Below, piece after piece: positions 5,103 through 22,212 of a stretch of 64,000 nucleotides of DNA. Source of the stretch: Bacteroidota bacterium (GTDB taxonomy: Bacteria > Bacteroidota > Ignavibacteria > UBA10030 > JAHEZR01); the NCBI GenBank assembly GCA_049589195.1, contig JBAWAH010000042.1, positions 2,354-66,353 on the forward strand. Reading direction: 5' to 3'. Made by a program: the position numbers and the translations under genes. Within the stretch, counting starts at the first letter, position 1, and each line of letters opens with the position of its first letter. Under the pieces are notes generated by a model that had not been told where the DNA came from, made no database searches, and was given only the letters and a program-made list of their open reading frames with translations.

Positions 5103-7175
5103 GTGAATTCCAGACCCACGGTGCCGGCAACTTCCGGACACTCCCCCAAAGAGAGGGGGGAGCGCGAATTTCATTCTCCCACCACGCAAGTGCTTTCTCC
5201 GCTGAAGAAACTCGTCTTCCTTGGATTGACAATCGCATCGCCACTTCTTCTCCTCGTTGCTGTCGAACTCGGGCTGCGCCTCTTCAATGTCGGGCCCGAT
5301 CTTTCGCTATTCAGGCCCGAAACGATCCGCGGCCAGGTGTATTATGTTATGAATCCTTCAGTCGGAGCCCGTTACTTCTCCGGTTCTGGATTTGCCCCGG
5401 CCCCGTCGACCGAATACTTCAAGGTCCCCAAACCGGCAGGCACCTTTCGCATTTTCTGTCTTGGTGGATCGACTGTCGTGGGGTACCCGTACTGGCATAA
5501 TGCGTCGTTCAGTTCGTTTCTTCGCGAGCGGCTGCGTTGGATCTTTCCAGGACGTGACATCGAGGTCATCAACTTGGGGATGACGGCGATCAATAGTTAT
5601 ACAGTGCTCGATCTTGTTCGCGAACTTCCCATGTATGATCCTGATCTGATCATCATTTACGATGGGCATAATGAGTTCTATGGTGCACTTGGCGCTGGTG
5701 CACTCGGGACGGTGTCGCATTTTCGGTGGCTGGTCAAGGCGTACCTGCATCTCATGCACTATCGAATTTTTCTTCTACTGCGAGAGGGATATGTGTGGCT
5801 CCGTGAGGCAATGCGTGGAGAAGGCGAGTCAGTGCTCAGGGGACCGACCCTCGAACTTCTGGCAGGCAGGCAGCTGATCCCAGCGAAGAGCGCGTTGTAC
5901 AGGGACAGCAGACTCATCTTCGAATCGAACCTTAAGGACATCTGCTCCATCGCCCGCGAACATCATATCCCGATCCTTTTAAGCACCCAGGTTTCCAATT
6001 TGCGGGACATGCCACCATTTTCGTCAGAAGCACCCGCAGGGTTAACCACCGGGGTAAGGAACACGTTCGACCGTCATCTGGATTCTGGGCACAAGGCCAT
6101 CCTTGATCAGGACTGGAGTGCGGCGCTCATGGAATTGCAGGCTGCACGGGCGATCGATTCATCTCACGCGTGGACCCACTATGCCATCGCAACATGTCTG
6201 GACCTCCTGGGACGGACGCGTGAAGCAAGGACAGAATACGTGAAGGCACGAGACGAAGACCAGCTTCGATTTCGCGCATCCACCGATTTCAATCGAGTGA
6301 TTGCAGAGATGGCGGATACAACAGCTGTGGGAGTTGTTGACATGGAACAGGTGTTCATGGGCAATTCACCCGATTCTCTCATTGGCAGTTCTTTGATCAT
6401 GGACCATCTGCACCCGAATTCCTTCGGGCATTTCCTGATGGGGGAAGCGTATGCCAAAGCGATGCGTCGTCGGGGACTTCTTGCGTCACCTGCCGTCTGG
6501 GCATCGCAGGATACTATTCCGGACAGCCTGCTCTGGGCTTACCGTCCTGTTGCAGAGATTGATGAGCGCATTGCGGCGAGACGCACGGAAATTCTCCTAT
6601 CCAGCTGGCCGTTTGTGGGACATGACACAACGGTTTCCCCCGTGTCAACGCAGGATACCCTGGGACATATCGCAGAAGATGTCGTGCACCAAAATTCTGG
6701 TTGGGGTGATGCTCACGAAGAGGCCATCAGATTCTATGCGGGGAGACACGATTGGCAGAATCTGGAGCGTGAGTACAGGACGCTGGTCAACCTCGTGCCA
6801 CTGGAGGTGATGCCGTACCTGAGGCTCGGCCGACTGTATCTCCAGCAACGGCGGTTCAGCGAAGCGCGCGCGGTGTTCCAGACCTCCCTGCAGGTGGAGC
6901 CAACTGCCACTGCGTACAGAAACCTCGGTGACATCGCTCTTCGAGATAGTTCTACAGATGAAGCAATCACCCTCTACGAAAAGACTCGGGCATTTCGACA
7001 ATCGCGAGAAGAAGAGGTACAGAATGGCTTCGTTCTTGCAGTCGTGTACCTGAGGCGAAACATGCCTGGCCCTGCAGAATCCCAGTTGCTTCATGTGTTG
7101 TCAATCGATCCGACACACAAAGCGTCCCAAGAACTGCTGAAGGTAATCCGCCTGGCAAAGCAGAAACGTCCGTAG
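5103..7175 (+). CDS. SGNH/GDSL-type hydrolase domain fused to TPR repeats, with an N-terminal membrane anchor.
   Basis: A TM segment LVFLGLTIASPLLLLVAVELGLRLF follows the N-terminus. An SGNH-like block FCLGGSTVVGYPY ... DGHNEFYG ... DHLHPN is present. The C-terminal third has TPR-like repeats (AIATCLDLLGRTREARTEYVKA..., RLGRLYLQQRRFSEARAVFQTSL). Confidence 0.5.
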   Translation: MNSRPTVPATSGHSPKERGEREFHSPTTQVLSPLKKLVFLGLTIASPLLLLVAVELGLRLFNVGPDLSLFRPETIRGQVYYVMNPSVGARYFSGSGFAPAPSTEYFKVPKPAGTFRIFCLGGSTVVGYPYWHNASFSSFLRERLRWIFPGRDIEVINLGMTAINSYTVLDLVRELPMYDPDLIIIYDGHNEFYGALGAGALGTVSHFRWLVKAYLHLMHYRIFLLLREGYVWLREAMRGEGESVLRGPTLELLAGRQLIPAKSALYRDSRLIFESNLKDICSIAREHHIPILLSTQVSNLRDMPPFSSEAPAGLTTGVRNTFDRHLDSGHKAILDQDWSAALMELQAARAIDSSHAWTHYAIATCLDLLGRTREARTEYVKARDEDQLRFRASTDFNRVIAEMADTTAVGVVDMEQVFMGNSPDSLIGSSLIMDHLHPNSFGHFLMGEAYAKAMRRRGLLASPAVWASQDTIPDSLLWAYRPVAEIDERIAARRTEILLSSWPFVGHDTTVSPVSTQDTLGHIAEDVVHQNSGWGDAHEEAIRFYAGRHDWQNLEREYRTLVNLVPLEVMPYLRLGRLYLQQRRFSEARAVFQTSLQVEPTATAYRNLGDIALRDSSTDEAITLYEKTRAFRQSREEEVQNGFVLAVVYLRRNMPGPAESQLLHVLSIDPTHKASQELLKVIRLAKQKRP

Positions 7176-9236: not shown

Positions 9237-9399
9237 GCGCGACGAAGGATGTGCAGCGAGCAATGAGATTTGTGGAGAGAGCTAGTTGTTAGAGATTTGA
9301 CGTTCAAGCCTTGACATTCTCTGAGATAATCTCTACCTTAGTTCAGTTCTTTGTATAGAGACATGTTCTGGTGTTCCTCCTCGACTCTTTCGAGTCGAG

Positions 9400-9700
9400 C
9401 GTGCGAACGCAAGAGGGAAACCCGTGAACCCCGGACTTGATTCGGGGAAGTCGGGTGCTGCCCCGCAACTGTAATCCCATTCTTCCGCTTTTTGCGGGAG
9501 AGTAAATCTCTGAACGAGTGAAGCCACTGTCCCGAAGTGAGTCAGGATGGGAAGGCAAGTCAGAGATTGGGTGAGCCAGGAGACCGACCAGGACACGAAG
9601 ATAAGCGTTTGCCTTCGCGGGAAGGTGTGGCCATACCGAACTAGACGGGCTTTTCTTTAGACCCCAACCTCCCTGGCGAAGGTTGGGGTTTTTTGTTCAT
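9400..9700 (+). promoter_or_regulatory. Cobalamin (AdoCbl) riboswitch plus expression-platform terminator in the btuB leader.
   Basis: Conserved blocks appear in the correct order. First, aGAGGGAAAcccGUGaACCCCGG matches the GGGAA...GGUG...AAnCC region. Second, GUGCUGCCCCGCAACUGUAA is the B12-box region (CCCGCaACuGUaA). Third, GAGCCAGGAGACCGACC matches the GCCAGGAgACC 3' block. A GC hairpin with a U-tract follows at 9662-9698. A TonB receptor gene starts at 9739. Confidence 0.7.
9662..9698 (+). terminator. Intrinsic terminator hairpin, the riboswitch OFF-state terminator.
   Basis: CCCCAACCT-ccctggcga-AGGTTGGGG is a 9-bp stem. It is followed by TTTTTTGTT, 40 nt upstream of the btuB start. Confidence 0.6.
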
Positions 9701-9738: not shown

Positions 9739-11661
9739 ATGAAAATTGTCCGTGCTGCGATTCTCCCTTTTCTTCTCTGCTCAGCTGTCTGGGCACAAGA
9801 TCAACAAAGCGACAGTGCAAAGACATACCAGTTGGGCGAAGTTGTGGTGACAGCAACGCGAAGTCCGATTTCCATCAAGGACTCTCCATCACCCGTAGAG
9901 GTCATTGATGCTCAGCAGATCCAATACGCGAGTGGAAGCACTGTGGCAGATGTTCTTCAAGACTACAGCAGCGTGTTTCTCAAGAACTACGGGGCGGACG
10001 CGGCCCTCAAGACCGTTTCCTTGCGCGGGACGGCTTCAGAACATCTGCTCGTTCTGGTGAACGGAAGCCGATTGAACAGCTTTCAAAATGGCCTCGTGGA
10101 TTTCAGCCTTCTGCCGCTGACTGATGTGGAGCGAATTGAAATTGTCCACAGCGGGAGTTCAGCTCTCTATGGCGCAGATGCCCTTGGAGGTGTGGTCAAT
10201 ATCCTTACTCGACGGCCGAGTTCGGACTTGCACTGGCGTGCGGAGGTCGGCGGTGGATCCTTTGGCTTTCAAAGATACCTCCTCGAAACTCAGGGTCGGC
10301 TTGGCGAACTCGGTTTGCTGGGTGGATACTCAAGCGAGAGAGGTCGCGACGACTTCTCCTTTCACCCTCAGAATGTGGCGGTCGGTGATCTGGTTTCCCG
10401 TCGTCTCAATTCCGACTTCTCGAAGCGTCAGGTCTATCTCCATGGGAATCTCTCAACCGACGAAAACTCTCTCCTGACGTTTTCTGTCCAACATGTCCTT
10501 GCGGACCGTGGAGTACCCGGAGACCTGCAATTTCCGACTCAGGCGGCTCGTCAAAACGACAAGGATGTGAACCTTCTCGTCGGCTATCTCGATAAACATC
10601 TGGACGGTGCTGAGATCACGGTGAACAGCGCATTCCACTACAACCTTGAGACCTATGATGATCCAACCTTTGGGATCAATTCTTACTACAAAACTGTTTT
10701 CTTGAATGTGAATCCTCAAGCCCACATCTTCATCAGCCGGAGCCAAAGGCTTATCTTGGGAGGAGAGCTGGGGAGAGGAGTTCTCTATGGAAACGACTTT
10801 GACGGCAGAATAGCACGAGTTCAAAAATCCGCTTACGCGTCGAATGAATTTCAATTTGAGACTGATCGACCCATGCTGGATAAGATCTCGCTGTACCAAA
10901 CCCTTCGCTACGATGACATCTCAGATGTCGATAATGCATTGACTCCAAAGGTCGGAGTGAACCTGAGGATTCTCAGGGAAGGCGACCTTCGTATCCGTTC
11001 GAGCTTTGGGCGAAACTTTCGCGCACCATCGTTTAATGACATGTACTACCGCGGCTTCAGCAATCCAAGCTTAAAGCCCGAACGATCCACGAGTTTTGAT
11101 CTTGGGTTCCTCTCGACACTTCACTCTTGGGGTGAGCACACGTTTGAGCTAACGTATTTTCATCTGAACACGGAGAATCGTATCCTGTTTGATCCTGTGA
11201 CATTTCTCCCAGTGAACATCGGAGAAAGCAGGTCCACCGGTCTCGAGGCCAGATACCAGGGGCATCTCCTGAACAGGATGATCGATCTCACGCTGAGTTA
11301 CACGCTCGCAGACGCACGCAAGATGAATCGCAGCTCGGACAACGATCAATCATTCGATAAACAATTGTTGTATGTGCCCAGGAATGTTGCTACATTTGAT
11401 TTGGCGTTTCGGCTGGGGCCGGCCGTTCTCAGTCTGACTCAGTCTTATGTCGATCGTCGATACACTACGGAGGATAATTCTCAATGGCTTCCTCCGAATC
11501 AGGTTACGAGTGCTAACATTGTCATCAATGCTCAAATCGATACGCGAAGACTGTTTGTGAAAGCAGAGATTAACAATATCTTTGACAGAGACTACGAGGT
11601 CTTCCAGAACTATCCGATGCCTGGCCGCAATTTCCGGGTCACGCTCGGGTTTGAGTACTGA
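9739..11661 (+). CDS. btuB: TonB-dependent outer-membrane receptor, BtuB-like corrinoid transporter.
   Basis: A signal peptide is present. The TonB box/plug reads TYQLGEVVVTATR. The plug continues ...VLQDYSSVFLKNYGADAALKTVSLRGTASEHLLVLVNGSRLN...IEIVHSGSSALYGADALGGVVNI. The C-terminus is the aromatic barrel ending ...RNFRVTLGFEY. The btuB assignment rests on the upstream cobalamin riboswitch. Confidence 0.8.
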   Translation: MKIVRAAILPFLLCSAVWAQDQQSDSAKTYQLGEVVVTATRSPISIKDSPSPVEVIDAQQIQYASGSTVADVLQDYSSVFLKNYGADAALKTVSLRGTASEHLLVLVNGSRLNSFQNGLVDFSLLPLTDVERIEIVHSGSSALYGADALGGVVNILTRRPSSDLHWRAEVGGGSFGFQRYLLETQGRLGELGLLGGYSSERGRDDFSFHPQNVAVGDLVSRRLNSDFSKRQVYLHGNLSTDENSLLTFSVQHVLADRGVPGDLQFPTQAARQNDKDVNLLVGYLDKHLDGAEITVNSAFHYNLETYDDPTFGINSYYKTVFLNVNPQAHIFISRSQRLILGGELGRGVLYGNDFDGRIARVQKSAYASNEFQFETDRPMLDKISLYQTLRYDDISDVDNALTPKVGVNLRILREGDLRIRSSFGRNFRAPSFNDMYYRGFSNPSLKPERSTSFDLGFLSTLHSWGEHTFELTYFHLNTENRILFDPVTFLPVNIGESRSTGLEARYQGHLLNRMIDLTLSYTLADARKMNRSSDNDQSFDKQLLYVPRNVATFDLAFRLGPAVLSLTQSYVDRRYTTEDNSQWLPPNQVTSANIVINAQIDTRRLFVKAEINNIFDRDYEVFQNYPMPGRNFRVTLGFEY

Positions 11662-13472: not shown

Positions 13473-14648
13473 TTGTTTCCTCACAACGATCGTCGGACAA
13501 GTGTGGAAGCTAAATTAGCTCTCGAAAATGGCACAGTCTTCCGCGGCGAATGTTTTGGCGCCGCGGGAGAAGTGACCGGTGAGGTCGTGTTCAATACCAG
13601 TCTCACCGGCTATCAGGAGATTCTCACCGATCCTTCCTACTGCGGCCAGATCGTCACGATGACGTATCCGCTCATCGGGAACTACGGAATCAATTTCGAT
13701 GATCTGGAGTCAGCGAAGCCGCAGGTCGCTGGCTTCATTGTGAGGGAGTATTTTGATTTCTACAGCAACTGGCGGGCGAAGCAGTCTCTCGGTGATTGGC
13801 TGCGCGAACACCGGATCATTGCCATTCAGGGGATCGACACAAGGATGCTCACGAAGATGATCCGAACGAAGGGAGCGATGCGGGGGATTATCTCCTCGCA
13901 AGACCTGGATGATGAGAGTCTCCTCCAAAAAGCCCGGAGCTCACCCGAAATGGCGGGACTCGACCTGACGAAGGTGGTGACGTGTAAGGAAATGTTCCAC
14001 TGGGAGGCAGTTGATGAGACCCAGTATGGACTTCGTCCTCAGCTCGGCGTCGACACTCAGAATGGTCAGCGGTTCAATGTTGTGGTGTATGACTTCGGAG
14101 CCAAGCATAACATCCTCCGTCGGCTGACAACCTACGGATGCAACCTGACCGTTGTCCCGTCAGACACACCCGCCGAAAGAGTCTTGGGGATGAATCCGGA
14201 CGGGATTTTCTTGTCGAACGGCCCTGGCGATCCCGCCGCAACCAAATATGCGATCAAGTCGATCCGCAAATTGATGGATAAGAAACCGATCTTCGGGATC
14301 TGCCTCGGACACCAACTACTCGCTCTTGCTCTCGGTGGGAAGACCTATAAATTGAAGTTTGGACACCGCGGGGCGAATCATCCGGTGAAAAACCTCCTGA
14401 CAAGCGAAATCGAGATCACGACTCAGAACCACGGGTTTGCAGTCGACTGGAACTCGATGGACGAGCGCACCGTCGAGCTGACACACATCAATCTGAACGA
14501 CCAGACCGTCGAAGGCTTCCGACATCGGGAGCTACCGATCTTTTGTGTCCAGTACCATCCGGAAGCCTCTCCCGGTCCGCACGACAGCGATTACCTCTTC
14601 CGAAACTTCATCGAGTTGATGCAGAAGGCGACAGTGGAAGTCGCCTGA
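13473..14648 (+). CDS. carA: Carbamoyl-phosphate synthase small (glutaminase) subunit.
   Basis: The CPSase small-chain N-domain is present (GEVVFNTSLTGYQEILTDPSYCGQIVTMTYPLIGNYG). The class-I GATase motifs are present: PIFGICLGHQLLALALGG with the catalytic Cys, and ...VQYHPEASPGPHD. Confidence 0.9.
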   Translation: MFPHNDRRTSVEAKLALENGTVFRGECFGAAGEVTGEVVFNTSLTGYQEILTDPSYCGQIVTMTYPLIGNYGINFDDLESAKPQVAGFIVREYFDFYSNWRAKQSLGDWLREHRIIAIQGIDTRMLTKMIRTKGAMRGIISSQDLDDESLLQKARSSPEMAGLDLTKVVTCKEMFHWEAVDETQYGLRPQLGVDTQNGQRFNVVVYDFGAKHNILRRLTTYGCNLTVVPSDTPAERVLGMNPDGIFLSNGPGDPAATKYAIKSIRKLMDKKPIFGICLGHQLLALALGGKTYKLKFGHRGANHPVKNLLTSEIEITTQNHGFAVDWNSMDERTVELTHINLNDQTVEGFRHRELPIFCVQYHPEASPGPHDSDYLFRNFIELMQKATVEVA

Positions 14649-14682
14649 TCGTCCTGACCACTTCTTTTGACCTCCCCTTGGT

Positions 14683-14704
14683 CCCCTCCTTAATTAAGGA
14701 GGGG
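14683..14704. terminator. Bidirectional terminator between the convergent carA and hydrolase genes.
   Basis: A perfect 22-nt palindrome CCCCTCCTTAATTAAGGAGGGG sits between a + gene ending at 14648 and a - gene ending at 14805. T-rich sequence follows. Confidence 0.5.
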
Positions 14705-14804
14705 ATATTAGGGGAGGTTGATTTTTGTTCATCCACAATCAGCTCATCCTCCCGTACTTCCTCAAAACCTCTTCAACCTTCTTCATCGGCACTGCATCAA
14801 CTCC

Positions 14805-15503
14805 TCACGCTGATGACGGTCGAGCATCCTCTTTGGCCAGTTCGGCAACGACAGGCACGCCACGGTGACGGTCTATCCAATATGCCCAGAAGATGATGAT
14901 CAACGCGGCAAGCCCAACGATGCCCATCATGCTTTCGCTGGCAGGCTCTCGGTTGATTGCATTCGCTGCATAGACCAGTGCGAGAAATGTGATGAGTCCC
15001 CAGAAGGCGTAGGTCCCCGTGCGGTCCTTCGCGACGGTGGTGCGTATGTACAGAATTACGCCGACCACGAACATTGCTCCTTCCACCACGACTGTGGCCG
15101 GTACGGAATTCCACAGGCCAAGTCCAACGTAGGCCGACAGGCCCGGCGCTATCGGCATGTCAGGGCCATGTGAGATTGCATCGAGAATCCAATGGCTCAA
15201 GACACAAATCCCCAAGACCCAGGAGCCTTTCCGGTCGCGGCGGATGGCGAAATAGATGAGTCCAAACGCTATTGACCAGGCGATTGAAGTGACAAGGCTG
15301 TGAGAGATCGGATAGTCATAGAAATCGTACGGCGTGAAAGCCGTGTTGCCCGGGTCCGGCCTTACGTGCTCAAGGCCAAGGAGTGCGAGGATCGGAAAAA
15401 GTAGATCGAGGAGTTGCGCCGAGACGAATAGTGTGCCGAGTGATGTTTTCGGTGCTACCTTCTTCGCGGCAAGCGCAACAGCGTAGTGTCCGATGAACAT
15501 TTT
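14805..15503 (-). CDS. Membrane-bound metal-dependent hydrolase, YdjM/DUF457-like.
   Basis: The sequence MFIGHYAVALAAKK...LLDLLFPILALLGLEHVRP...YDYPISHSLV...LSHWILDAISHG carries conserved His residues across 5-6 TM helices. The probable start is the internal Met at 15503, not the track's 15599. Confidence 0.5.
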   Translation of the reverse strand, partial: KMFIGHYAVALAAKKVAPKTSLGTLFVSAQLLDLLFPILALLGLEHVRPDPGNTAFTPYDFYDYPISHSLVTSIAWSIAFGLIYFAIRRDRKGSWVLGICVLSHWILDAISHGPDMPIAPGLSAYVGLGLWNSVPATVVVEGAMFVVGVILYIRTTVAKDRTGTYAFWGLITFLALVYAANAINREPASESMMGIVGLAALIIIFWAYWIDRHRGVPVVAELAKEDARPSSA

Positions 15504-15813
15504 TTCCTTTTGTAATTGATTATCCGGAGTGGCGTCAGCGACCCTTCGCTGACACTCGGGTGGGCCTATGGACGCAGACTCGTTCTTCTTCAAAAACATC
15601 TTTGCTCTTGCACGCCAGCAAGACAGTTGGAAAAACCGGAAACAACTGGAGGAGGATTTGCCGCCTGGTGAGTTGCATGAGTAGGTTGTTCAACTGAGGC
15701 TGTTGACCCGCACCTGACTCCAACCTCTAGCTGGGTGGATTCGGGAAGAAGCGCTATAGATGCAGGGCATGAGCTCGAGGAATCACGCCGTTGCCTTTGA
15801 CGCTATTAACTGC

Positions 15814-16587
15814 TCATTTTCCCGTGTTGTCCGTTACTTGGATGGTGCAGGCGTTCCGATAGAACGGCGGATACTCACTGTTGAGATCGCCCAAGAAGTA
15901 GAAGCCGTACACCAGCTGATACTCACCCGGATCGAAGTCAGCCGCCAACCGTACGAGGCTCTTGCCTCGTTGGAGAGAGTAGTGTTGCTCAAGAACCAAA
16001 TCGATGGAGTCCTGAGATTTCCTTTTGAGGACGGTAAGAATGAAAGGTGTCAACTTGGGCAAAGCGGTGGAATCAAGCACTTCAACTTTCACTTCGATTA
16101 TTTCGTTCCTCGCATAGACAGTTTTGGGGCATTCCGATCTCGCCAGAGTGCCGAGGGGAGCCTCTACATAACCCTTCACAGCGAGTGGAATTCTAAACCA
16201 AGGAACGTTGATCTGGGCGATTGCTGCCAGCCCAATATTAGTGGCGCCATTAGGTGGGTACACTAGCTTCGGTGCAGGTGGTAGAGGGAGTTGGGAGCCA
16301 GGCCCGGCTGGGTTGGTGATTGTTGACTGCATACGATCAGCCAGGAACTTTCCCAGTGATCTCAGGTCTCTAGCGCTGAGTTGCCAAACGACCGTGTCCC
16401 GCGAGTTTGGCTGGTTCGTCACAAATACCTTGGTTGGCTCTTTGCCAGCATTGTACCAAACGTTCAGACCAAACATCACCAAAGCACCGACGACGGTCCA
16501 AAAAGTCCCGGCAAGATACTTTCTCCCAAAGAGGTATCGAACGCCCTTCCTGAAAGCGATAATCAGTTTGTTTGCCTTTTCATTCAT
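15814..16587 (-). CDS. Hypothetical membrane-anchored protein (one N-terminal TM helix, otherwise soluble). It is the downstream partner of the AT-rich gene.
   Basis: A TM helix GTFWTVVGALVMFGLNVWY is followed by a ~200-aa domain with no recognisable motif. The track ORF 15814..16707 overlaps the upstream gene by 80 nt. A more likely start is MNEKANKL near 16587. G+C looks normal, unlike its upstream neighbour. Confidence 0.3.
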   Translation of the reverse strand: MNEKANKLIIAFRKGVRYLFGRKYLAGTFWTVVGALVMFGLNVWYNAGKEPTKVFVTNQPNSRDTVVWQLSARDLRSLGKFLADRMQSTITNPAGPGSQLPLPPAPKLVYPPNGATNIGLAAIAQINVPWFRIPLAVKGYVEAPLGTLARSECPKTVYARNEIIEVKVEVLDSTALPKLTPFILTVLKRKSQDSIDLVLEQHYSLQRGKSLVRLAADFDPGEYQLVYGFYFLGDLNSEYPPFYRNACTIQVTDNTGK

Positions 16588-16627
16588 GGTTGTGGAGGGG
16601 GCGCAGGAAATACGCCGTGCGCGCAAA

Positions 16628-17791
16628 TCATACTTTATCTTCCCCGTTGATTTCGTCGAATGAGGAGTAGATGGATCTCTGGATTGCCATTTCCTTTTCT
16701 TTTTCAAGACGTTCAGATTTGCCAGTTGCCAAGAGCTCAGGGATCAGGTTTATATCATCTTCAATATCGCTCCGTGCAACGTATATCCAAGAGTTTGGTC
16801 TTTTCCTCTCCCTAATACATTCAGGGGAAGGTCCACTTTTGATGGATAGATAAATCTCTTTGAATACATGATTAAGATATGCTTCCTTTTCGCCTGAAAG
16901 ATACGGTAATATTTCTGGTAATATCTGGAGATATGAAAGTGGTGTAGCCCCCACCTGCCTAAAGAAGAAAGGTTTCCTGAAAAGACGAATCTCAACAGGC
17001 TGCGGTATTGTATACTCGCTTGGCAAATAAAAAAGGTCTTCATACTCTTCAAATGGATCAAACTTGATGTCCTTGGATACGAACAATGAGTATCTCATAA
17101 TATTCTTTCCAAACGGATGGCCAGCCAATAATTGAACGATGTAGTTATCCAAGTAGAAGTATGCTCCTTTAAGTTGGGATTCAGCAATATATGCATTTGA
17201 CAATGAGAAGTTCGCTGAGAAAACGTCTTCTTTAGCATTCGCTTTAACGTAGAAAGGTTTTCTAAAACCAGTGGCTAATACTGCTTTTGCTCCGGGAAAA
17301 TAGGAATTATTTTCTTGTCTGTTTATGTAGCTGTACAGCCGTGATACCAATCCAATAAATTTCACGAGCGGCTCAACTGACAAGGTAATCCGAGAATTGT
17401 AGCTCTTCAAGAAAGTTTCTTCGTCCTTCAATTCATCCTTTGAAAAGATTTCTCTTAACTCATTGGCGGACATTCCTCTTCTAATGGCTTGTCCAATAGA
17501 GGGCATGAGGAAATCCGGTAAGTCAATGGTAAGAAAGATTGCGTCATTAATACGCCGTACTTGCAGGTTCGCTGGATAATAATCTGGATAACTCGCTTCT
17601 TCATTCTCCATTAGCATGAGAGCGTCTTCAAGAAACCGCAATCTCTTTATTGCTTCTTGGCCAATATTGGTTCTAATGTCGTATGCTCCAATTTCCAGAT
17701 GGCTGGAAAATCCCAAGAGATCAATAATCGCGGTAACGGTATACTTTATGTCTATATTCTTCTCCAAATGATACTCCTTCAATGATTTCAA
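16628..17791 (-). CDS. Hypothetical 387-aa protein encoded by a strongly AT-rich gene with a TTG start. Weak class-III nucleotidyl-cyclase/palm-like motifs are present.
   Basis: The translation begins (TTG)KSLKEYHLEKNIDIKYTVTAIIDLLGFSSHLEIG... and contains RRINDAIFLTIDLPD about 57 residues later. This loosely resembles the class III cyclase motifs (V..lFxDIvGFT and KTIGDAYM). The nucleotide sequence is visibly AT-rich against GC-rich neighbours. No ATG start is available before residue 59. Confidence 0.35.
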   Translation of the reverse strand: MKSLKEYHLEKNIDIKYTVTAIIDLLGFSSHLEIGAYDIRTNIGQEAIKRLRFLEDALMLMENEEASYPDYYPANLQVRRINDAIFLTIDLPDFLMPSIGQAIRRGMSANELREIFSKDELKDEETFLKSYNSRITLSVEPLVKFIGLVSRLYSYINRQENNSYFPGAKAVLATGFRKPFYVKANAKEDVFSANFSLSNAYIAESQLKGAYFYLDNYIVQLLAGHPFGKNIMRYSLFVSKDIKFDPFEEYEDLFYLPSEYTIPQPVEIRLFRKPFFFRQVGATPLSYLQILPEILPYLSGEKEAYLNHVFKEIYLSIKSGPSPECIRERKRPNSWIYVARSDIEDDINLIPELLATGKSERLEKEKEMAIQRSIYSSFDEINGEDKV

Positions 17792-17969
17792 TTGCAGATA
17801 TTATCTCTTTACACTATTATTGGCGCGCATACTTGCCGGCAGTGGTATTGCCCATAACTACTGCGACTGCGAACAATTTCGTTTAGCATCCCAAAGCAGG
17901 TGAAAAGACGAATGTCGTATGGTTTGGTGGTGCGTAAGGCATGCCGCCTCCGTGACATGTTCACAGAGA

Positions 17970-18150
17970 CCTTCACTCTACGACTCCCAACGGGTCAATC
18001 GGCCCGTCGGGTCGTTGACTTCGAGTCGATAGACTCGTAGAGGTAGGTCTGCTTGAGTGTGTCAAACTTTGACGAAATGTAGAAAAAGAGAAGAGGAAAG
18101 TCAAGCCCACGGTCTACGACTCATCGAGTTGCTAGACTCGTGGAGCTTGT
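17970..18150. repeat. Two related nested inverted-repeat (stem-loop) elements in non-coding DNA.
   Basis: Copy 1 has CTCTACGA...TCGTAGAG enclosing TTCGAGTC-gata-GACTCGTAG. Copy 2 has GTCTACGAC...GTCGTAGAC enclosing TCGAGTT-gcta-GACTCGTGG. There is no coding potential. Confidence 0.35.
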
Positions 18151-18254
18151 CGTAGACAAGAAGAATGATTGAGAAACTCCACCAGCCGGGCAAAGAAGGA
18201 CCAGTGAGGACACTGCCGAAGGCATCGAGATTGTGTAAGAAGTCGTTTTGTCAC

Positions 18255-18565
18255 TCTGAGTCCCGCCAGAAGCGGGACGAATCCCGAAGGGATCCCTTCG
18301 GGAGAGTCTCGTTGTTCCATCCGATTCTTCATCCCGCTGACGCGGGATTCAGAATGACAGGACGCCCCATTGGGCTCTCACACAAATGCCATCCCTTCGG
18401 GACTGTCCTACCCGACAACCCCAGGGTAGGACAGGACTCCGTCCTGTCCCGATTGGACGGGAATGGATTCCCGTCCTACCAAATGATTCCCTGGGCAGGA
18501 TAGATCTGCGACTCGTAGAGACTCTTTCCTATCCGGGGAGACAGGAGAGGACCTCCTGTCCTACC
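18255..18565. repeat. Dense cluster of at least 7 short GC-rich perfect hairpins, REP/MITE-like or a structured RNA.
   Basis: The hairpins are: GTCCCGC-cagaa-GCGGGAC (18260-78); CCCGAAGG-gatc-CCTTCGGG (18283-302); ATCCCGC-tgac-GCGGGAT (18331-48); GTCCTACCC...GGGTAGGAC (18405-32); GGACAGGAC-tcc-GTCCTGTCC (18430-50); GGACGGGAAT-gg-ATTCCCGTCC (18456-77); GACAGGAG-aggac-CTCCTGTC (~18538-58). Confidence 0.45.
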
Positions 18566-18581
18566 AGAGATGCGGCCATGC

Positions 18582-18614
18582 AAAAAAAATGGCTCGCGTT
18601 TGGCGAGCCATTCT
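18582..18614 (-). terminator. Intrinsic terminator of the toxin-antitoxin operon. This is copy A of a duplicated hairpin.
   Basis: The + strand reads AAAAAAAATGGCTCGC-gtttg-GCGAGCCATT. On the - strand this is a 10-bp stem followed by U8, directly after the RelE-like stop. Confidence 0.55.
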
Positions 18615-18666
18615 CAAGATCAGAACCGGAAGAAGGCTTGCTCGGTTCGGAATCCTTGTGACCGAA

Positions 18667-18927
18667 TTACTTCCTGTACGCTTCCTTTCGATGCAGTATG
18701 CGATAGATCACTACCTTCTTATTCCGATCATCGATTTCTAGGAGGACACGATAATCTCCCACTCGGATGCGCCATTCATCCCTTGTTCCCAGTAGTTTTC
18801 GGATCTGTGGTGGCCTGGCGTTTTCTTCGAACTGGTTAATCATCCTGTCTGCCCGTCTGCGAATCTGTTCTGGCAATTCCTCGAGCTGCCGGGAAGCTGT
18901 ACCTGTGAGAAGTACAGTATACTTCAA
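18667..18927 (-). CDS. Type II toxin, RelE/ParE family.
   Basis: The translation is MKYTVLLTGTASRQLEELPEQIRRRADRMINQFEENARPP...WRIRVGDYRVLLEIDDRNKKVVIYRILHRKEAY, which carries the ParE/RelE core. The start overlaps the upstream antitoxin stop (ATGA). Confidence 0.75.
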   Translation of the reverse strand: MKYTVLLTGTASRQLEELPEQIRRRADRMINQFEENARPPQIRKLLGTRDEWRIRVGDYRVLLEIDDRNKKVVIYRILHRKEAYRK

Positions 18928-19157
18928 AGCTTGCCTTTGGCTCGGAGAGACTTACGAACTTCTCGATAAGGAAGTAACGTGTCTTTGCCGGTCCTTATTT
19001 CGTTCTTCGCCCGTTGAATCTCAAGAGAGTCTTTAAGGTCCTCGATAAGGCTGTGTAGCGCCTTGTACTCCTTTATAGGGAGAATCACCTCTCTTGGCTT
19101 CCCGTTGCGCTTGATGATTCGGGCCTTCTGAGGCAGAGCCATTGTCTTGTCAGCCAT
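18924..19157 (-). CDS. Type II antitoxin, Phd/YefM (or RelB)-like.
   Basis: It is 77 aa with ...KARIIKRNGKPREVILPIKEYKALHSLIEDLKDSLEI.... It is translationally coupled to the RelE/ParE gene. Confidence 0.55.
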   Translation of the reverse strand: MADKTMALPQKARIIKRNGKPREVILPIKEYKALHSLIEDLKDSLEIQRAKNEIRTGKDTLLPYREVRKSLRAKGKL

Positions 19158-19212
19158 CTCGCTCTCTCTCCAGATTGTGAAATAAGATACCGAAGTTATT
19201 CTTGAGAGTCAA

Positions 19213-19250
19213 AACAAAAAACGGCTCGCGTTTGGCGAGCCATTTCTTTA
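19213..19250 (-). terminator. Intrinsic terminator downstream of nrdJ. This is copy B of the duplicated hairpin.
   Basis: The + strand reads AAAACAAAAAACGGCTCGC-gtttg-GCGAGCCATTTCTTT. It shares the 22-nt core GGCTCGCGTTTGGCGAGCCATT with copy A. On the - strand the hairpin is followed by UUUUUUGUUUU. Confidence 0.5.
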
Positions 19251-19344
19251 TCAAGTACAAATCTCTCCGTCCCGCCTTCGTCCCGGAAAATCGGGACTTC
19301 GGCGGGTAAACCCGCCGAAGCTCGAAGAGCGCAGGCGGGGTAAA

Positions 19345-19490
19345 TCGAGACTTCAGGAACAGCCAGACGGTTCTCCATCCGCCAAGCAGATGGCGAGATG
19401 TCGAGACTTCAGGAACAGCCTGACGTCTCTCCATCCGCCAAACAGATGGCGAGATGTCGAGACTTCAGGAACAACCTGAAGTCTCTCCAC
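19345..19490. repeat. Tandem 56-nt repeat (2.6 copies), each unit containing an 11-bp hairpin. It overlaps the nrdJ stop codon.
   Basis: The units are 19345-19400, 19401-19456 and a partial unit 19457-19490. The core is GAGACTTCAGG-aaca(g/a)-CCTGA(C/A)GTCTC followed by TCCATCCGCCAA(G/A)CAGATGGCGAGATGTC. The spacer portions are identical between units, so this is not CRISPR-like. Confidence 0.6.
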
Positions 19491-22212
19491 AATTCAGACA
19501 CTTGTAGCAGTTGCCGCTCCTCACCATAATGCTGCCGCAGTCATGGCAGGAAGGGGAGTCGGCCTGAGCCTGGAAGACGATCTTCTCATTTGATTCCATC
19601 GTCCCAGGAACCCTGGCCGTATCGCCTGCGAGCCTGTCCTTTTCCGATGCATTAAGCGAATCGGACATCGTCACAACCGGCTGTTCGTCTTTCGGGAGGA
19701 ATTTCAGTCCGAGCCATCGGAAGATGTAGTCACAGAGTGACTTGGCGATAGGAATCTCTTTGTTGTTCGTGAAGCCGCTCGGCTCGAATCGCATGTGGCT
19801 GAACTTGTCCACCAGGATTCTCAAAGGAACTCCGTACTGGAGCGCGAGCGAAACGGCTGTGGCGAACCCGTCCATAAGCCCTGAGATGGTCGAGCCTTCC
19901 TTCGACATCGTGATGAAGACCTCCCCAGGCTTGCCATCCTCGTAGGTTCCCACGGTTATATAGCCTTCGTGGCCCGCAATACTGAATTTATGGGTGATAG
20001 ACTTCCTCTCGTCGGGCAAACGCCGTCGTTGAGGCTTAAATTTCGGTTTCTCAGGGGTCTCTTTTGAGGTGCTGACCGGTTGAGTGCGCTTGCAGCCGTC
20101 GCGGTAGACCGCAATAGCCTTCAGGCCGAGCTTCCATGCTTCAATGTATGTCTGGGAGATGTCATCGGGCGTGACGTCATTGGGCATGTTCACGGTTTTG
20201 GAGATTGCACCCGAAAGGTACGGTTGGGTGGCGGCCATCATCCTGACGTGACCCATATAATGGATCGATCGCATTCCTTTTTTCGGTTTGAAGGCGCAAT
20301 CAAACACAGCGAGATCTTCTTCATTCAAGTATGGAGCGCCCTCGATCGTGTCATTCTTGTCGATGAAAGCGATGATGTGCTCGATCTGCTCTTTGTTATA
20401 TCCCAGCTTCTGGAGCGCCTCTGGAACAGTGTGGTTAACAATCTTCAAGAAGCCGCCGCCGACGAGTTTCTTATACTTCACAAGCGCGATGTCCGGCTCC
20501 ACCCCGGTCGTGTCGCAATCCATCATGAACCCGATTGTGCCGGTTGGGGCGAGGACCGTTGCCTGGGAGTTTCGGAAGCCGTACTCTGACCCCAGTGTGT
20601 ATACATCTTTCCAGACGCTGGTTGCAGCTGTGTACAAATCCTCGGGGACGAAGCTGCCATCAACCTTCTCGGCATAAAGACCGTGCTTCAGAATGACGTC
20701 GAGCATCGGCTCTCGGTTGACTGTGAATCCGTTGAACGGACTGAGCACCTTTGCTAGTAACGCTGACTGTTTGTACGCTTGGCCGCACATGAGAGAGGTC
20801 ACAGCGGCGGCGTACGCTCGGGCACCGTTTGAATCGTACGGGAGACCACGTGACATCAGCAATGCGCCGAGGTTTGCGTAACCCAAGCCGAGGGGACGAA
20901 AGTCGTAGCTGTTCCGTTCGATAGCCGGCGTTGGATAGCTTGCATTGTCCACCAAAATCTCTTGTGCAGTAATGACGATATCGACGGCATGCTTGAAGGT
21001 ATCGATATCGAATTCTCCATCTTCTCTTCGAAACTTCATGAGGTTGAGAGAAGCAAGGTTGCATGCCGTGTCGTCAAGGAACATGTACTCGCTGCACGGA
21101 TTGGATGCATTGATCGGGGCAGTATTCCGGCACGTATGCCAGTTGTTGATCGTCGTATGGAATTGCAGGCCGGGATCACCACAGATCCACGCAGCCTCAG
21201 CGATCTCCTTCATCAAGTCGCGTGCCTGGTACGCTCCCATCACCTTACCCGTCGTGATCGCCTTCGTGTACCATTCCTTGTCCTCAAGGAGAGCGCGCAT
21301 AAACTCATCTGTAACGCGGACTGAGTGATTGGCATTTTGGTAGTTGATCGAGTCGTAGGCACCACCCGGCACGTTAAACCCGACGTTGTAGCCAGCTTCG
21401 ATGAGCGCCCAGGCTTTCTTTTCTTCTTCAGCTTTGCAGTGAATGAATTCGAAAATGTCCGGATGGTCGGCGTTGAGGATGACCATCTTTGCAGCACGTC
21501 GAGTCTTCCCACCCGACTTGATTACGCCCGCAAACGCATCATAGCCTTTCATGAAGGAGACAGGTCCGCTCGCGATTCCCCCGCCCGAGAGACTCTCTTT
21601 TGAAGAACGAAGAGTCGAGAGGTTCGTCCCGGTTCCCGAACCCCACTTGAACAGCCGCCCTTCCGTCTTTGCAAGATCCAGAATTGAATCCATTTTGTCC
21701 TGGACCGAATTGATGAAGCATGCAGAACACTGCGGACGGTCTTCGACACCGACATTGAACCACACCGGACTGTTGAAGGCTGCGTATTGATTGACAAGCA
21801 AGTATGTCAGCTCGGAATAAAACGTATCTGCGTCTTCCTCCGAGGCGAAATACTTTCCTTTTCTTCCCCAGTCCGTGATTGTCTTGGAAACTCTGTCAAT
21901 GAGTTCCTTCACACTTCGCTCGCGCGCTGGTGTATTGATTTTTCCATGGAAGTACTTTGAGGAAACGACATTCGTCGCCGTCATCGACCAAGACGTTGGG
22001 ACCTCAACGTTTTTCTGCTCGAAGAGTACCTCGCCCTTCTCATTCGAGATCGCCGCGTTGCGAAGTTCCCACACGATATCATCGAAGGGATGTATTCCTT
22101 TCTTTAAGAAAAGCCTGTGAAACGTGAGTCCTTGGGCGGTTTTCGCCTCGACCGAGGAGGGCGTGGAAGCTACGTCGACCTGATTTGCAGCAAAGGATTC
22201 ATCGCTCGCCAT
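19465..22212 (-). CDS. nrdJ: Adenosylcobalamin-dependent (class II) ribonucleotide reductase.
   Basis: It is 915 aa. It carries RNR large-subunit blocks (...NSCSEYMFLDDTACNLASLNL..., ...VNRGDPGL-like region ICGDPGLQFHTTINNWHTC) and the class II architecture. The C-terminus is a zinc ribbon CHDCGSIMVRSGNCYKCLNCGETSGCS. Confidence 0.85.
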   Translation of the reverse strand: MASDESFAANQVDVASTPSSVEAKTAQGLTFHRLFLKKGIHPFDDIVWELRNAAISNEKGEVLFEQKNVEVPTSWSMTATNVVSSKYFHGKINTPARERSVKELIDRVSKTITDWGRKGKYFASEEDADTFYSELTYLLVNQYAAFNSPVWFNVGVEDRPQCSACFINSVQDKMDSILDLAKTEGRLFKWGSGTGTNLSTLRSSKESLSGGGIASGPVSFMKGYDAFAGVIKSGGKTRRAAKMVILNADHPDIFEFIHCKAEEEKKAWALIEAGYNVGFNVPGGAYDSINYQNANHSVRVTDEFMRALLEDKEWYTKAITTGKVMGAYQARDLMKEIAEAAWICGDPGLQFHTTINNWHTCRNTAPINASNPCSEYMFLDDTACNLASLNLMKFRREDGEFDIDTFKHAVDIVITAQEILVDNASYPTPAIERNSYDFRPLGLGYANLGALLMSRGLPYDSNGARAYAAAVTSLMCGQAYKQSALLAKVLSPFNGFTVNREPMLDVILKHGLYAEKVDGSFVPEDLYTAATSVWKDVYTLGSEYGFRNSQATVLAPTGTIGFMMDCDTTGVEPDIALVKYKKLVGGGFLKIVNHTVPEALQKLGYNKEQIEHIIAFIDKNDTIEGAPYLNEEDLAVFDCAFKPKKGMRSIHYMGHVRMMAATQPYLSGAISKTVNMPNDVTPDDISQTYIEAWKLGLKAIAVYRDGCKRTQPVSTSKETPEKPKFKPQRRRLPDERKSITHKFSIAGHEGYITVGTYEDGKPGEVFITMSKEGSTISGLMDGFATAVSLALQYGVPLRILVDKFSHMRFEPSGFTNNKEIPIAKSLCDYIFRWLGLKFLPKDEQPVVTMSDSLNASEKDRLAGDTARVPGTMESNEKIVFQAQADSPSCHDCGSIMVRSGNCYKCLNCGETSGCS

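Follow-up and report, generated by a model that had tools for sequence, protein, structure and literature searches.

The subject of this analysis is a cluster of short, perfect inverted repeats at positions 18255-18565 of a 64,000-nt stretch (hereafter the window) of contig JBAWAH010000042.1, from the Bacteroidota bacterium assembly GCA_049589195.1. We interpret it, with a probability of about one half, as a strain-variable stack of small DNA palindromes which resembles a bacterial interspersed mosaic element (BIME). It lies in a dispensable spacer between the terminator of the ribonucleotide reductase (RNR) and Phd/ParE genes and the conserved promoter of a slot for variable cargo genes. The initial annotation had offered three non-coding options for the region, namely repetitive extragenic palindromic (REP)/BIME-like repeats, a MITE (miniature inverted-repeat transposable element) and a multi-hairpin structured RNA. 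The first of these is the best, with incomplete membership in the class: the cluster is a REP-type element or a local look-alike. In either form it is nothing very unusual among the intergenic repeats of bacteria.

All seven inverted repeats of that annotation were recovered where it had placed them (Table 1), as were the related hairpins which it had reported at 19280-19320. The dimensions given there (stems of 7-10 bp, loops of 2-5 nt) require correction, as the stems actually measure 7-11 bp and the loops 0-10 nt. Hairpin 2, originally listed as CCCGAAGG/CCTTCGGG, is enclosed in a longer perfect palindrome. Hairpins 4 and 5 overlap by 6 nt and are therefore alternatives which never form together. 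When the whole window was scanned for perfect stems of at least 7 bp with loops of 0-12 nt, 55 hairpins were found. This gives an expectation of 0.23 per 311 nt, and the cluster holds 7 (Poisson P(>=7) = 6e-9); the highest hairpin density of the window is reached in the bin 18000-18499. Relative to dinucleotide shuffles, the folding energy has a z-score of -10.0 (RNA, plus strand), -9.0 (RNA, minus strand) and -8.1 (DNA). The cluster is not an assembly artefact because independent assemblies contain it: it is present in the NCBI/ENA metagenome-assembled genome (MAG) and in a Logan assembly (L002), and a variant form occurs in two JGI metagenomes (L003, L004).

A single 12-mer, GGGTAGGACAGG, makes up the right half of the cluster together with its complement, in five copies. 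The repeated unit consists of GTAG, the core GAC(A/G)GG, 1-3 more paired bases, a loop of 2-7 nt and the complementary arm; its stems have 8-10 bp and its orientation alternates. GTAG is located directly 5′ of the stem in three window units (18426+, 18479-, 18564-) and in units of L001, L003, L236 and L241. Across the six unit-carrying lineages, all units but two mutated copies have GTAG on one side, and every GAC(R)GG...CC(Y)GTC unit of the locus has 1-3 extra inner complementary pairs. Only one unrelated sequence of the window (37758, intragenic) matches the relaxed pattern, and it has neither inner pairs nor GTAG. Units U3 and U2 are arranged head to head as a dimer, their GTAG tags outermost and a spacer of 5 nt between them, and the inverted repeat which spans them (18425-18440 / 18465-18480) is 88% complementary. 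Hairpin 4 consists of two copies of the 12-mer, tail to tail, and its loop is unalignable across lineages (GACAACCCCA, TACGATAATCT, AGGGATCCATT). The terminal unit U1 is found in every lineage that carries the cluster.

The locus was aligned with ten related metagenomic loci (RNR 80-100% identical), which were retrieved by exact-protein look-ups and as RNR homologues. The closest GTDB genomes, with RNR 72-75% identical, have no DNA similarity in the spacer. Within an otherwise conserved spacer, the cluster is the most variable piece, with a patchy distribution and a size from 0 to about 310 nt. L002 is identical to the window and carries the full cluster (~310 nt). In L003 and L004, whose flanks are about 97% identical, the cluster measures ~250 nt, 58 nt (18474-18531) are missing and the loop of hairpin 1 is TTTTC in place of CAGAA. 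L236 (RNR 98%, no toxin-antitoxin cassette) has ~100 nt with three to four hairpins. L001, which is 99.9% identical in the toxin-antitoxin/RNR region, has one hairpin, GGACAGGTA-AGAA-TACCTGTCC, followed by TAC-TCCTGTCCTACC, and L243 (RNR 99%, no cassette) has the same single hairpin. Three hairpins are present in L241 (RNR 88%), one of them with a 14-bp stem (GGGTAGGACAGGTG-AGGA-CACCTGTCCTACCC). About 95 nt of other content occupies the site in L237 and L238 (RNR 93%), with no such hairpins in L237; they are also absent from L239 and L240 (RNR 91%), L244 (RNR 86%) and L245 (RNR 80%).

Compared with L003, 2 of 117 stem positions differ, as against 13 of 136 non-stem positions (Fisher P = 0.014); the same comparison with L004, which is not independent of L003, gives P = 0.002. 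Between lineages, the lower stem and the tag are constant and the upper stem is altered only in pairs (AC/GT, TG/CA, AG/CT, TA/TA, AAT/ATT), while the unit loops are unalignable. The 12-mer including GTAG is identical in lineages about 12% apart in RNR protein. All of the approximately 63 stem pairs are Watson-Crick with zero G-U, and GGA and TCC are equally enriched in the cluster (4.5 and 4.7 per 100 nt), as palindromes would give. The absence of G-U pairs together with the equal GGA and TCC frequencies argues for a process on DNA palindromes rather than selection on one RNA strand. Several indels are bounded by direct repeats of 10-13 nt (CCYGTCCTACC).

The cluster comprises several modules. 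Compared with L236, the window contains an extra block of about 181 nt with hairpins 1-3, extra units, and the 58-nt module to the right. The block (~181-187 nt) is missing from L236, L001, L243 and L241, and no similar sequence was found elsewhere in the window or in related loci. This block is the left half of the cluster and holds a 109-nt nested palindrome. The 17-nt arms of this palindrome have 2 mismatches and one hairpin each (18260-18278, 18331-18348), the 22-nt perfect palindrome at 18282-18303 forms its centre, and its outer flanks are unlike (CGTTTT / AGGACG). On the left, the hairpin H_a' is followed on the minus strand by GTCCTTCTTTG (TTCTTTG tail, UUCUUUG in RNA), which makes a weak-terminator-like site at 18215..18202. 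Its homologue in L001, L243, L236 and L241 is GGACAGGTA-AGAA/GGGA/AGGA-TACCTGTCC, and three stem pairs are changed on both sides (AGGTA/TACCT versus CAGTG/CACTG). A second local family consists of small palindromic insertions with CTACGACTC / GACTCGTAGAG ends, whose four motif copies all lie within 17976-18520. A copy of ~65 nt is missing in L237, L241 and L243, and one of 55 nt in L001, L237 and L243; L237 has a related copy at another position.

Table 1. Features of the hairpin cluster and of its surroundings, in window positions
Feature	Position	Strand	Sequence or structure	Remarks
Hairpin 1	18260-18278		GTCCCGC/GCGGGAC	loop 5 nt
Hairpin 2	18282-18303		TCCCGAAGGGA/TCCCTTCGGGA	22-nt perfect palindrome
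Hairpin 3	18331-18348		ATCCCGC/GCGGGAT	
Hairpin 4	18403-18434		CTGTCCTACCC/GGGTAGGACAG	stem 11 bp, loop 10 nt (N10)
Hairpin 5	18429-18449		GGACAGGAC/GTCCTGTCC	
Hairpin 6	18455-18476		GGACGGGAAT/ATTCCCGTCC	
Hairpin 7	18540-18560		GACAGGAG/CTCCTGTC	
Extra hairpin	18364-18375		GCCC-CATT-GGGC	inside the ~181-187-nt block
Extra hairpin	18392-18402		TCCC-TTC-GGGA	inside the ~181-187-nt block
Extra stem	~18498-18533		GGATAG...CTATCC	within/at the 58-nt segment
Putative founder hairpin H_a'	18202..18215	(-)	CAGTG-AGGA-CACTG on + strand	
~181-187-nt block	18216..18402	.		only in the window/L003/L004 lineage; holds hairpins 1-3
109-nt nested palindrome	18250..18358	.	arms GTCACTCTGAGTCCCGC...GCGGGATTCAGAATGAC	from minimum-free-energy structures and inverted repeats
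Unit U3	18426..18448	+	GTAG GACAGG-AC TCC GT-CCTGTC	
Unit U2	18456..18479	-	GTAG GACGGG-AAT CC ATT-CCCGTC	
58-nt segment	18474..18531	.	GGATAG...CTATCC hairpin and one local GACTCGTAGAG motif	gap in L003/L004
Unit U1	18540..18564	-	GTAG GACAGG-AG GTCCT CT-CCTGTC	terminal unit, adjoins CCAGAGATGCGG
CTACGACTC / GACTCGTAGAG family insertions	17974-18040, 18101-18155, 18495-18530			
Phd/ParE intrinsic terminator	18580..18612	-	hairpin 18588-18612 and T8 tail	right boundary of the cluster
Promoter-like site	18104..18076	-	TTGACT-17-TACATT	within conserved block ~17928-18182; left functional boundary
Class II (B12-dependent) RNR	19465-22212	-		
Phd/ParE toxin-antitoxin pair	18667-19157	-		ParE 18667-18927
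Cargo gene	16628-17791	-		AT-rich (39% GC), 387 aa
Cargo neighbour	15814-16707	-		predicted membrane protein

The architecture of the units accords with that of GTAG REPs. These are defined by stems of 6-13 bp, short loops and a terminal GTAG in units of 20-40 bp; they are often paired head-to-head or tail-to-tail or grouped with other DNA, and they are strain-variable and extragenic, mostly downstream of open reading frames (ORFs) and between unidirectional or convergent genes (PMC3733652). Like these elements (Di Nocera et al. 2013, PMC3733652; Nunvar et al. 2010, PMC2817692), the units of 23-25 nt combine GTAG with a GC-rich stem and a loop of 2-5 nt. Oppositely oriented units are joined head-to-head or tail-to-tail, and other DNA is interspersed in their larger groups. 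Their site is extragenic, past the end of an operon, with same-strand genes on both sides (ParE, 18667-18927, and cargo, 16628-17791). Furthermore, their number at the locus varies by strain, and sub-variants differ by complementary stem changes. The REP/BIME-like assignment is thus supported for the unit architecture, with its short GTAG-tagged palindromes in alternating, strain-variable, extragenic and operon-downstream arrangement; for dispersal it lacks support.

A number of observations weigh against this assignment. High copy number and dispersal are the defining property of REPs, and classical families exceed 100 copies per genome, whereas no unit was found outside the cluster in the 64-kb window plus about 60 kb of related sequence (~64-70 kb covered). 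REP-like high copy number is therefore not shown and may be false. A search for a second copy of the 12-mer TCCYGTCCTACC and of other short repeat families in the 64-kb window and in the lineage's other loci gave none. Within the window, 17976-18565 holds every occurrence of the 12-mer, of the TCCCGC hairpin pattern and of the GACTCGTAGAG motif, the 10-mers of the cluster occur elsewhere at chance rate (46 versus 42 expected), and a whole-window repeat search returned zero short dispersed families. No Y1 or REP-associated tyrosine transposase (RAYT) was detected among the 10 window proteins scanned around the locus. The tag itself is incomplete in two respects: half of the cluster (hairpins 1-3), like the 109-nt palindrome, lacks GTAG, and in L241 and hairpin 4 GTAG is base-paired in a longer stem, so that it is not always unpaired. 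In addition, the stems of the cluster are perfect, whereas REPs commonly have mismatches or G-T pairs. Finally, the most likely function, that of a barrier or insulator, is argued from position and by analogy.

If the preferred reading is correct, the minimal state would be one founder hairpin with a U-rich tail on the transcribed (minus) strand. In an insertion-tolerant spacer, individual lineages would differ by gains or losses of further units and of unrelated palindromic modules. The units may be copied by a process acting on single-stranded hairpins, for which a REP-type Y1 transposase encoded elsewhere, or template switching or slippage during replication, would be candidates. Template switching is reported to make perfect stems and to keep them through multi-base changes (PMC8794818). 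The only physiological effect would concern read-through transcripts of the upstream RNR/toxin-antitoxin operon: the stem-loops could halt 3′-5′ exonucleases and read-through, and the cargo promoter would thereby be insulated.

Other known palindromic systems share some features with the cluster. The 109-nt element (18250-18358) resembles a REP doublet forming a hairpin (REPIN) in its two inverted arms, each with a small palindrome, which fold into one long hairpin, and the U3/U2 doublet does so as well. In contrast to REPINs, only one copy of the element was found, a 22-nt insertion distinguishes its arms and it has no known associated transposase. The MITE proposal of the initial annotation is not borne out, as the 109-nt palindrome has neither a target-site duplication nor a second copy. 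Intrinsic terminators and 3′ stabilising stem-loops are likewise GC-rich on the transcribed strand and directly follow an operon, as the founder hairpin does before its UUCUUUG, and analogous hairpin pairs stand immediately after the portal and capsid stop codons of phage L298. However, a U-tract is missing from most units, and the cluster comes only after a strong canonical terminator. Integron attC sites, including clusters of attC sites lacking integron-integrases (CALINs), are comparable as imperfect palindromes beside a toxin-antitoxin cassette and strain-variable genes. They differ in their R''/R' boxes, in the palindromes between individual cargo genes and in the integrase, all of which are missing here; the attC boxes RYYYAAC / GTTRRRY are absent from both strands of 17800-18666, and the only match (19013) falls in the antitoxin gene.

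Similar hairpins occur in phage contigs. A viral contig scan found GTAG-GACAGG...CCTGTCC hairpins, 2-3 per contig, in several environmental phages, at times as inverted dimers. For example, L251 has three GTA-tagged copies between adaptor-like genes and L265 an inverted GTA-tagged dimer. In an untagged search with GGACAGGC...GCCTGTCC, the 5′ triplet found most often was GTA (22 of 212 flanks), but GTA had been imposed by the first pattern and the set of 212 is partly biased by it, which also counts against the REP assignment. No RAYT was found beside the viral copies; the flanking genes encode portal, capsid and adaptor proteins. This hairpin type is thus a multi-copy intergenic element in other genomes, which lends the REP reading indirect support, although nothing certain follows for the present genome. 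In phage L298, inverted GTG-GGACAGGC...GCCTGTCC pairs (2653-2705, 5150-5200) directly follow the portal and major capsid genes. Phage L279 carries, at 6792-7170, 11 copies of GGACAGG/CCTGTCC (extended TAGGACAGGT) which surround an AT-rich stretch, with primase-helicase and terminase genes on either side. This array looks like an origin or a packaging site, and blastn showed no homology between L279 and the locus past the motif. In plasmid and phage collections, blastn with word size 11 found no DNA similar to the cluster, viral contigs scanned with the bare 14-mer gave scattered single matches only, and the motif strings retrieved nothing but PCR primers from the literature.

A purely local origin is possible, although we regard it as unlikely. 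Template switching or slippage at one founder hairpin would then have generated the palindromes in place, neutrally, with no family and no transposase. The strictly local motifs agree with this, and perfect Watson-Crick pairing in all stems points to templated copying in the recent past. Template-switch events are reported to produce compensatory changes of several nucleotides and replacements of whole loops (PMC8794818, PMC8604942), and both are present here. The direct repeats which bound the indels fit as well, and the nearby RNR 3′ end has undergone a 56-nt tandem duplication, which demonstrates the region's proneness to such events. However, the ~181-nt block has no local template. The 12-mer with its GTAG has stayed constant over about 12% RNR protein divergence while the loops are saturated, and the same type of tagged hairpin is multi-copy in other genomes. 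The patchiness (present at 88% and 98-100% RNR identity, absent at 93, 91 and 86%) is also better matched by an element that is gained and lost than by slow growth in place.

More doubtful is an array of binding sites for a double-stranded DNA (dsDNA)-binding protein, in which the 12-mer, present in both orientations, would be recognised by a regulator, a replication or packaging protein, or a site-specific recombinase, and would control the promoter or the exchange of cargo. Conservation of the 12-mer sequence itself, beyond pairing, in L241, L236 and the window, where the spacers are not conserved, speaks for such sites, as do the five copies upstream of the conserved promoter-like site and the tandem copies in L001 with a period of 10-11 bp. 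The repeats TCCTACCCAGAGAT / TCCTTCCAGAGAT at the borders of a 4.3-kb insertion in L241 and the 11 core copies around the AT-rich stretch of phage L279 can be read in the same way. L279 was, however, found by motif search, and without other homology the likeness may be a selection effect. The inner 2-3 bases of each inverted pair are always complementary, which dsDNA binding does not need. Moreover, the array is missing from the close relatives L001 and L243, which retain promoter and cargo, and from L237, L240 and L244; no recombinase gene is present at the locus. The promoter block has the same orientation wherever it is retained, with no sign of inversion, and on this ground an invertible promoter was ruled out. 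NrdR boxes and a toxin-antitoxin operator were considered and dropped for reasons of position and sequence.

We consider it very unlikely that the GTAG-GAC(R)GG hairpin array is an active landing pad or sensor, the site of a hairpin-specific enzyme or of a phage-encoded DNA-binding protein. The array could then link infection by phage to the conserved promoter of the defence-gene slot next to it. The motif- or hairpin-flanked insertions (the 58-84-nt modules, the 4.3-kb block of L241 and the toxin-antitoxin cassette) would be explained in this way. An array of the same 12-mer is found in the replication/packaging intergenic region of L279. The block in L241 (10880-15190), with genes for an FGGY kinase, a zinc alcohol dehydrogenase and GH10, is inserted between terminator and hairpins, and its ends carry near-identical direct repeats of 13-14 nt (TCCTACCCAGAGAT / TCCTTCCAGAGAT).

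The third option of the initial annotation, a structured RNA, is very unlikely. It could be imagined as a multi-hairpin regulatory RNA on the plus strand, for instance a CsrB/RsmZ-like protein sponge with GGA in its loops. The fold is very stable, GGA does occur in plus-strand loops (AGGA in H_a', AGGAC in hairpin 7, UGGAU in hairpin 6, GGAUCC in hairpin 2), the loops of relatives are AGGA or GGGA, and a hairpin follows the 3′ end. Yet at gathering threshold Rfam found only the cobalamin riboswitch at 9352-9606 in the whole window, and at E <= 10 the best matches in 17700-19600 were eukaryotic miRNA and snoRNA models far under threshold. The plus strand has no promoter-like site and no U-tract past the 3′ hairpin. 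The symmetry of GGA and TCC and the lack of G-U pairs, already described, speak against selection on one strand. No part of the spacer varies more than the cluster, which is patchily distributed and absent or reduced to one hairpin in relatives with 99.9%-identical flanks; the cluster is therefore not a conserved functional RNA. A CsrA sponge in particular was ruled out by the GGA/TCC symmetry and the lack of conservation.

That the ORFs at 18165..18503 and 18386..18661 encode small proteins has next to no chance of being true: they exist as mechanical ORFs, as annotated, and a gene caller placed a 159-aa ORF here in L003/L004, but perfect palindromes run through them, neither has a Pfam, NCBIfam or PADLOC match, and the longer ORF retrieved from 5.8 billion proteins a sole homologue, the ORF at the same locus of a sister strain, whose frame is altered by the 58-nt deletion. 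Deletions of hundreds of nucleotides between close strains likewise break the frames, and the lengths of the indels are not divisible by three.

The consequences depend on dispersal. If the units are dispersed, GTAG-tagged REP-type repeats would be extended to an uncultivated Bacteroidota/Ignavibacteriota-like lineage; in the survey PMC3733652 GTAG REPs are unreported from this group, with only CGTC types in Bacteroidetes and Chlorobi. The relatives would then also provide a natural series, from one hairpin to about twelve, for the growth and shrinkage of a BIME-like cluster. Strict locality of the units would instead make the locus a compact case of palindromes which are born and kept perfect without an obvious family. 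In both cases it calls for caution in annotation, as gene callers put ORFs here and the fold statistics mimic a large structured RNA though the element lacks conservation. The neighbouring locus, where a conserved promoter block precedes a variable slot of mostly defence-type genes, is the more useful by-product.

All genes around the cluster lie on the minus strand. In the direction of transcription, the RNR stop is followed by degenerate 56-nt tandem repeats, an intrinsic terminator (19216-19248), the toxin-antitoxin cassette, a terminator copy, the hairpin cluster, the promoter-like site and the cargo gene. The tandem repeat (19290-19512) has 3-4 decaying copies and starts within the last RNR codons (stop at 19465). 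It copies the RNR-terminal hairpin GAGACTTCAGG-N5-CCTGAAGTCTC downstream, and relatives have 1-3 copies. The Phd/ParE cassette lies between two 29-nt terminator copies (18584-18612, 19216-19244) which are 97% identical. L243 (RNR 99%) and L236 (98%) have a single terminator copy and no cassette, and L237 (93%) has a decayed cassette between both copies; recombination at the terminator thus accounts for the gain or loss of the cassette. The terminator stem-loop GGCTCGCGTTTGGCGAGCC (19 nt) has exact matches in 29 unrelated metagenome contigs from varied environments (L086-L114), none of this lineage. This number probably exceeds chance, and GGCTCGCGTTTGGCGAGCC may be a commonly recurring terminator sequence. 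The conserved promoter block spans 150-230 nt with 80-90% nucleotide identity in L001, L237, L241, L243 and L244, and a perfect palindrome, GTCAAAGTTTGAC, lies in it just downstream of the promoter-like site. No tRNA or tmRNA which could serve as integration target is present in the window.

The interval between RNR and carA (window 13473-19464) is a variable slot whose gene changes from lineage to lineage and is mostly of defence type. The slot of the window holds a 387-aa protein and a membrane protein. In L001 the cargo is a fused AriAB/PARIS (PADLOC, E = 1.5e-29), in L241 a caspase-like Peptidase_C14 with TPR (PADLOC 'caspase', E = 6e-18), in L237 a HEC-09/NYN-like protein, in L244 a Trypsin_2 protein and in L240 a multihaem cytochrome. 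The promoter block precedes the cargo in each of these lineages but L240, where nothing matches it.

The 387-aa protein has no Pfam, NCBIfam or PADLOC match. Its family is rare and unannotated, with 129 cluster representatives among 1.84 billion, from Bacteroidota, Melioribacteraceae and Acidobacteria MAGs. The Foldseek matches (E ~1e-5, TM 0.33/0.6) of a confident AlphaFold model (predicted local distance difference test, pLDDT, 91.6; predicted template-modelling score, pTM, 0.90) are class III adenylyl/guanylyl cyclases and a cytidylate cyclase, and the N-terminal motif is IDLLGFS. The cargo pair could be a divergent defence system of a Pycsar-like cyclase and a membrane effector which PADLOC does not recognise. 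Elsewhere in the window, which also encodes the B12-dependent RNR, a gene for a TonB-dependent receptor (9739-11661) has the cobalamin riboswitch (Rfam RF00174, 78.9 bits) upstream of it.

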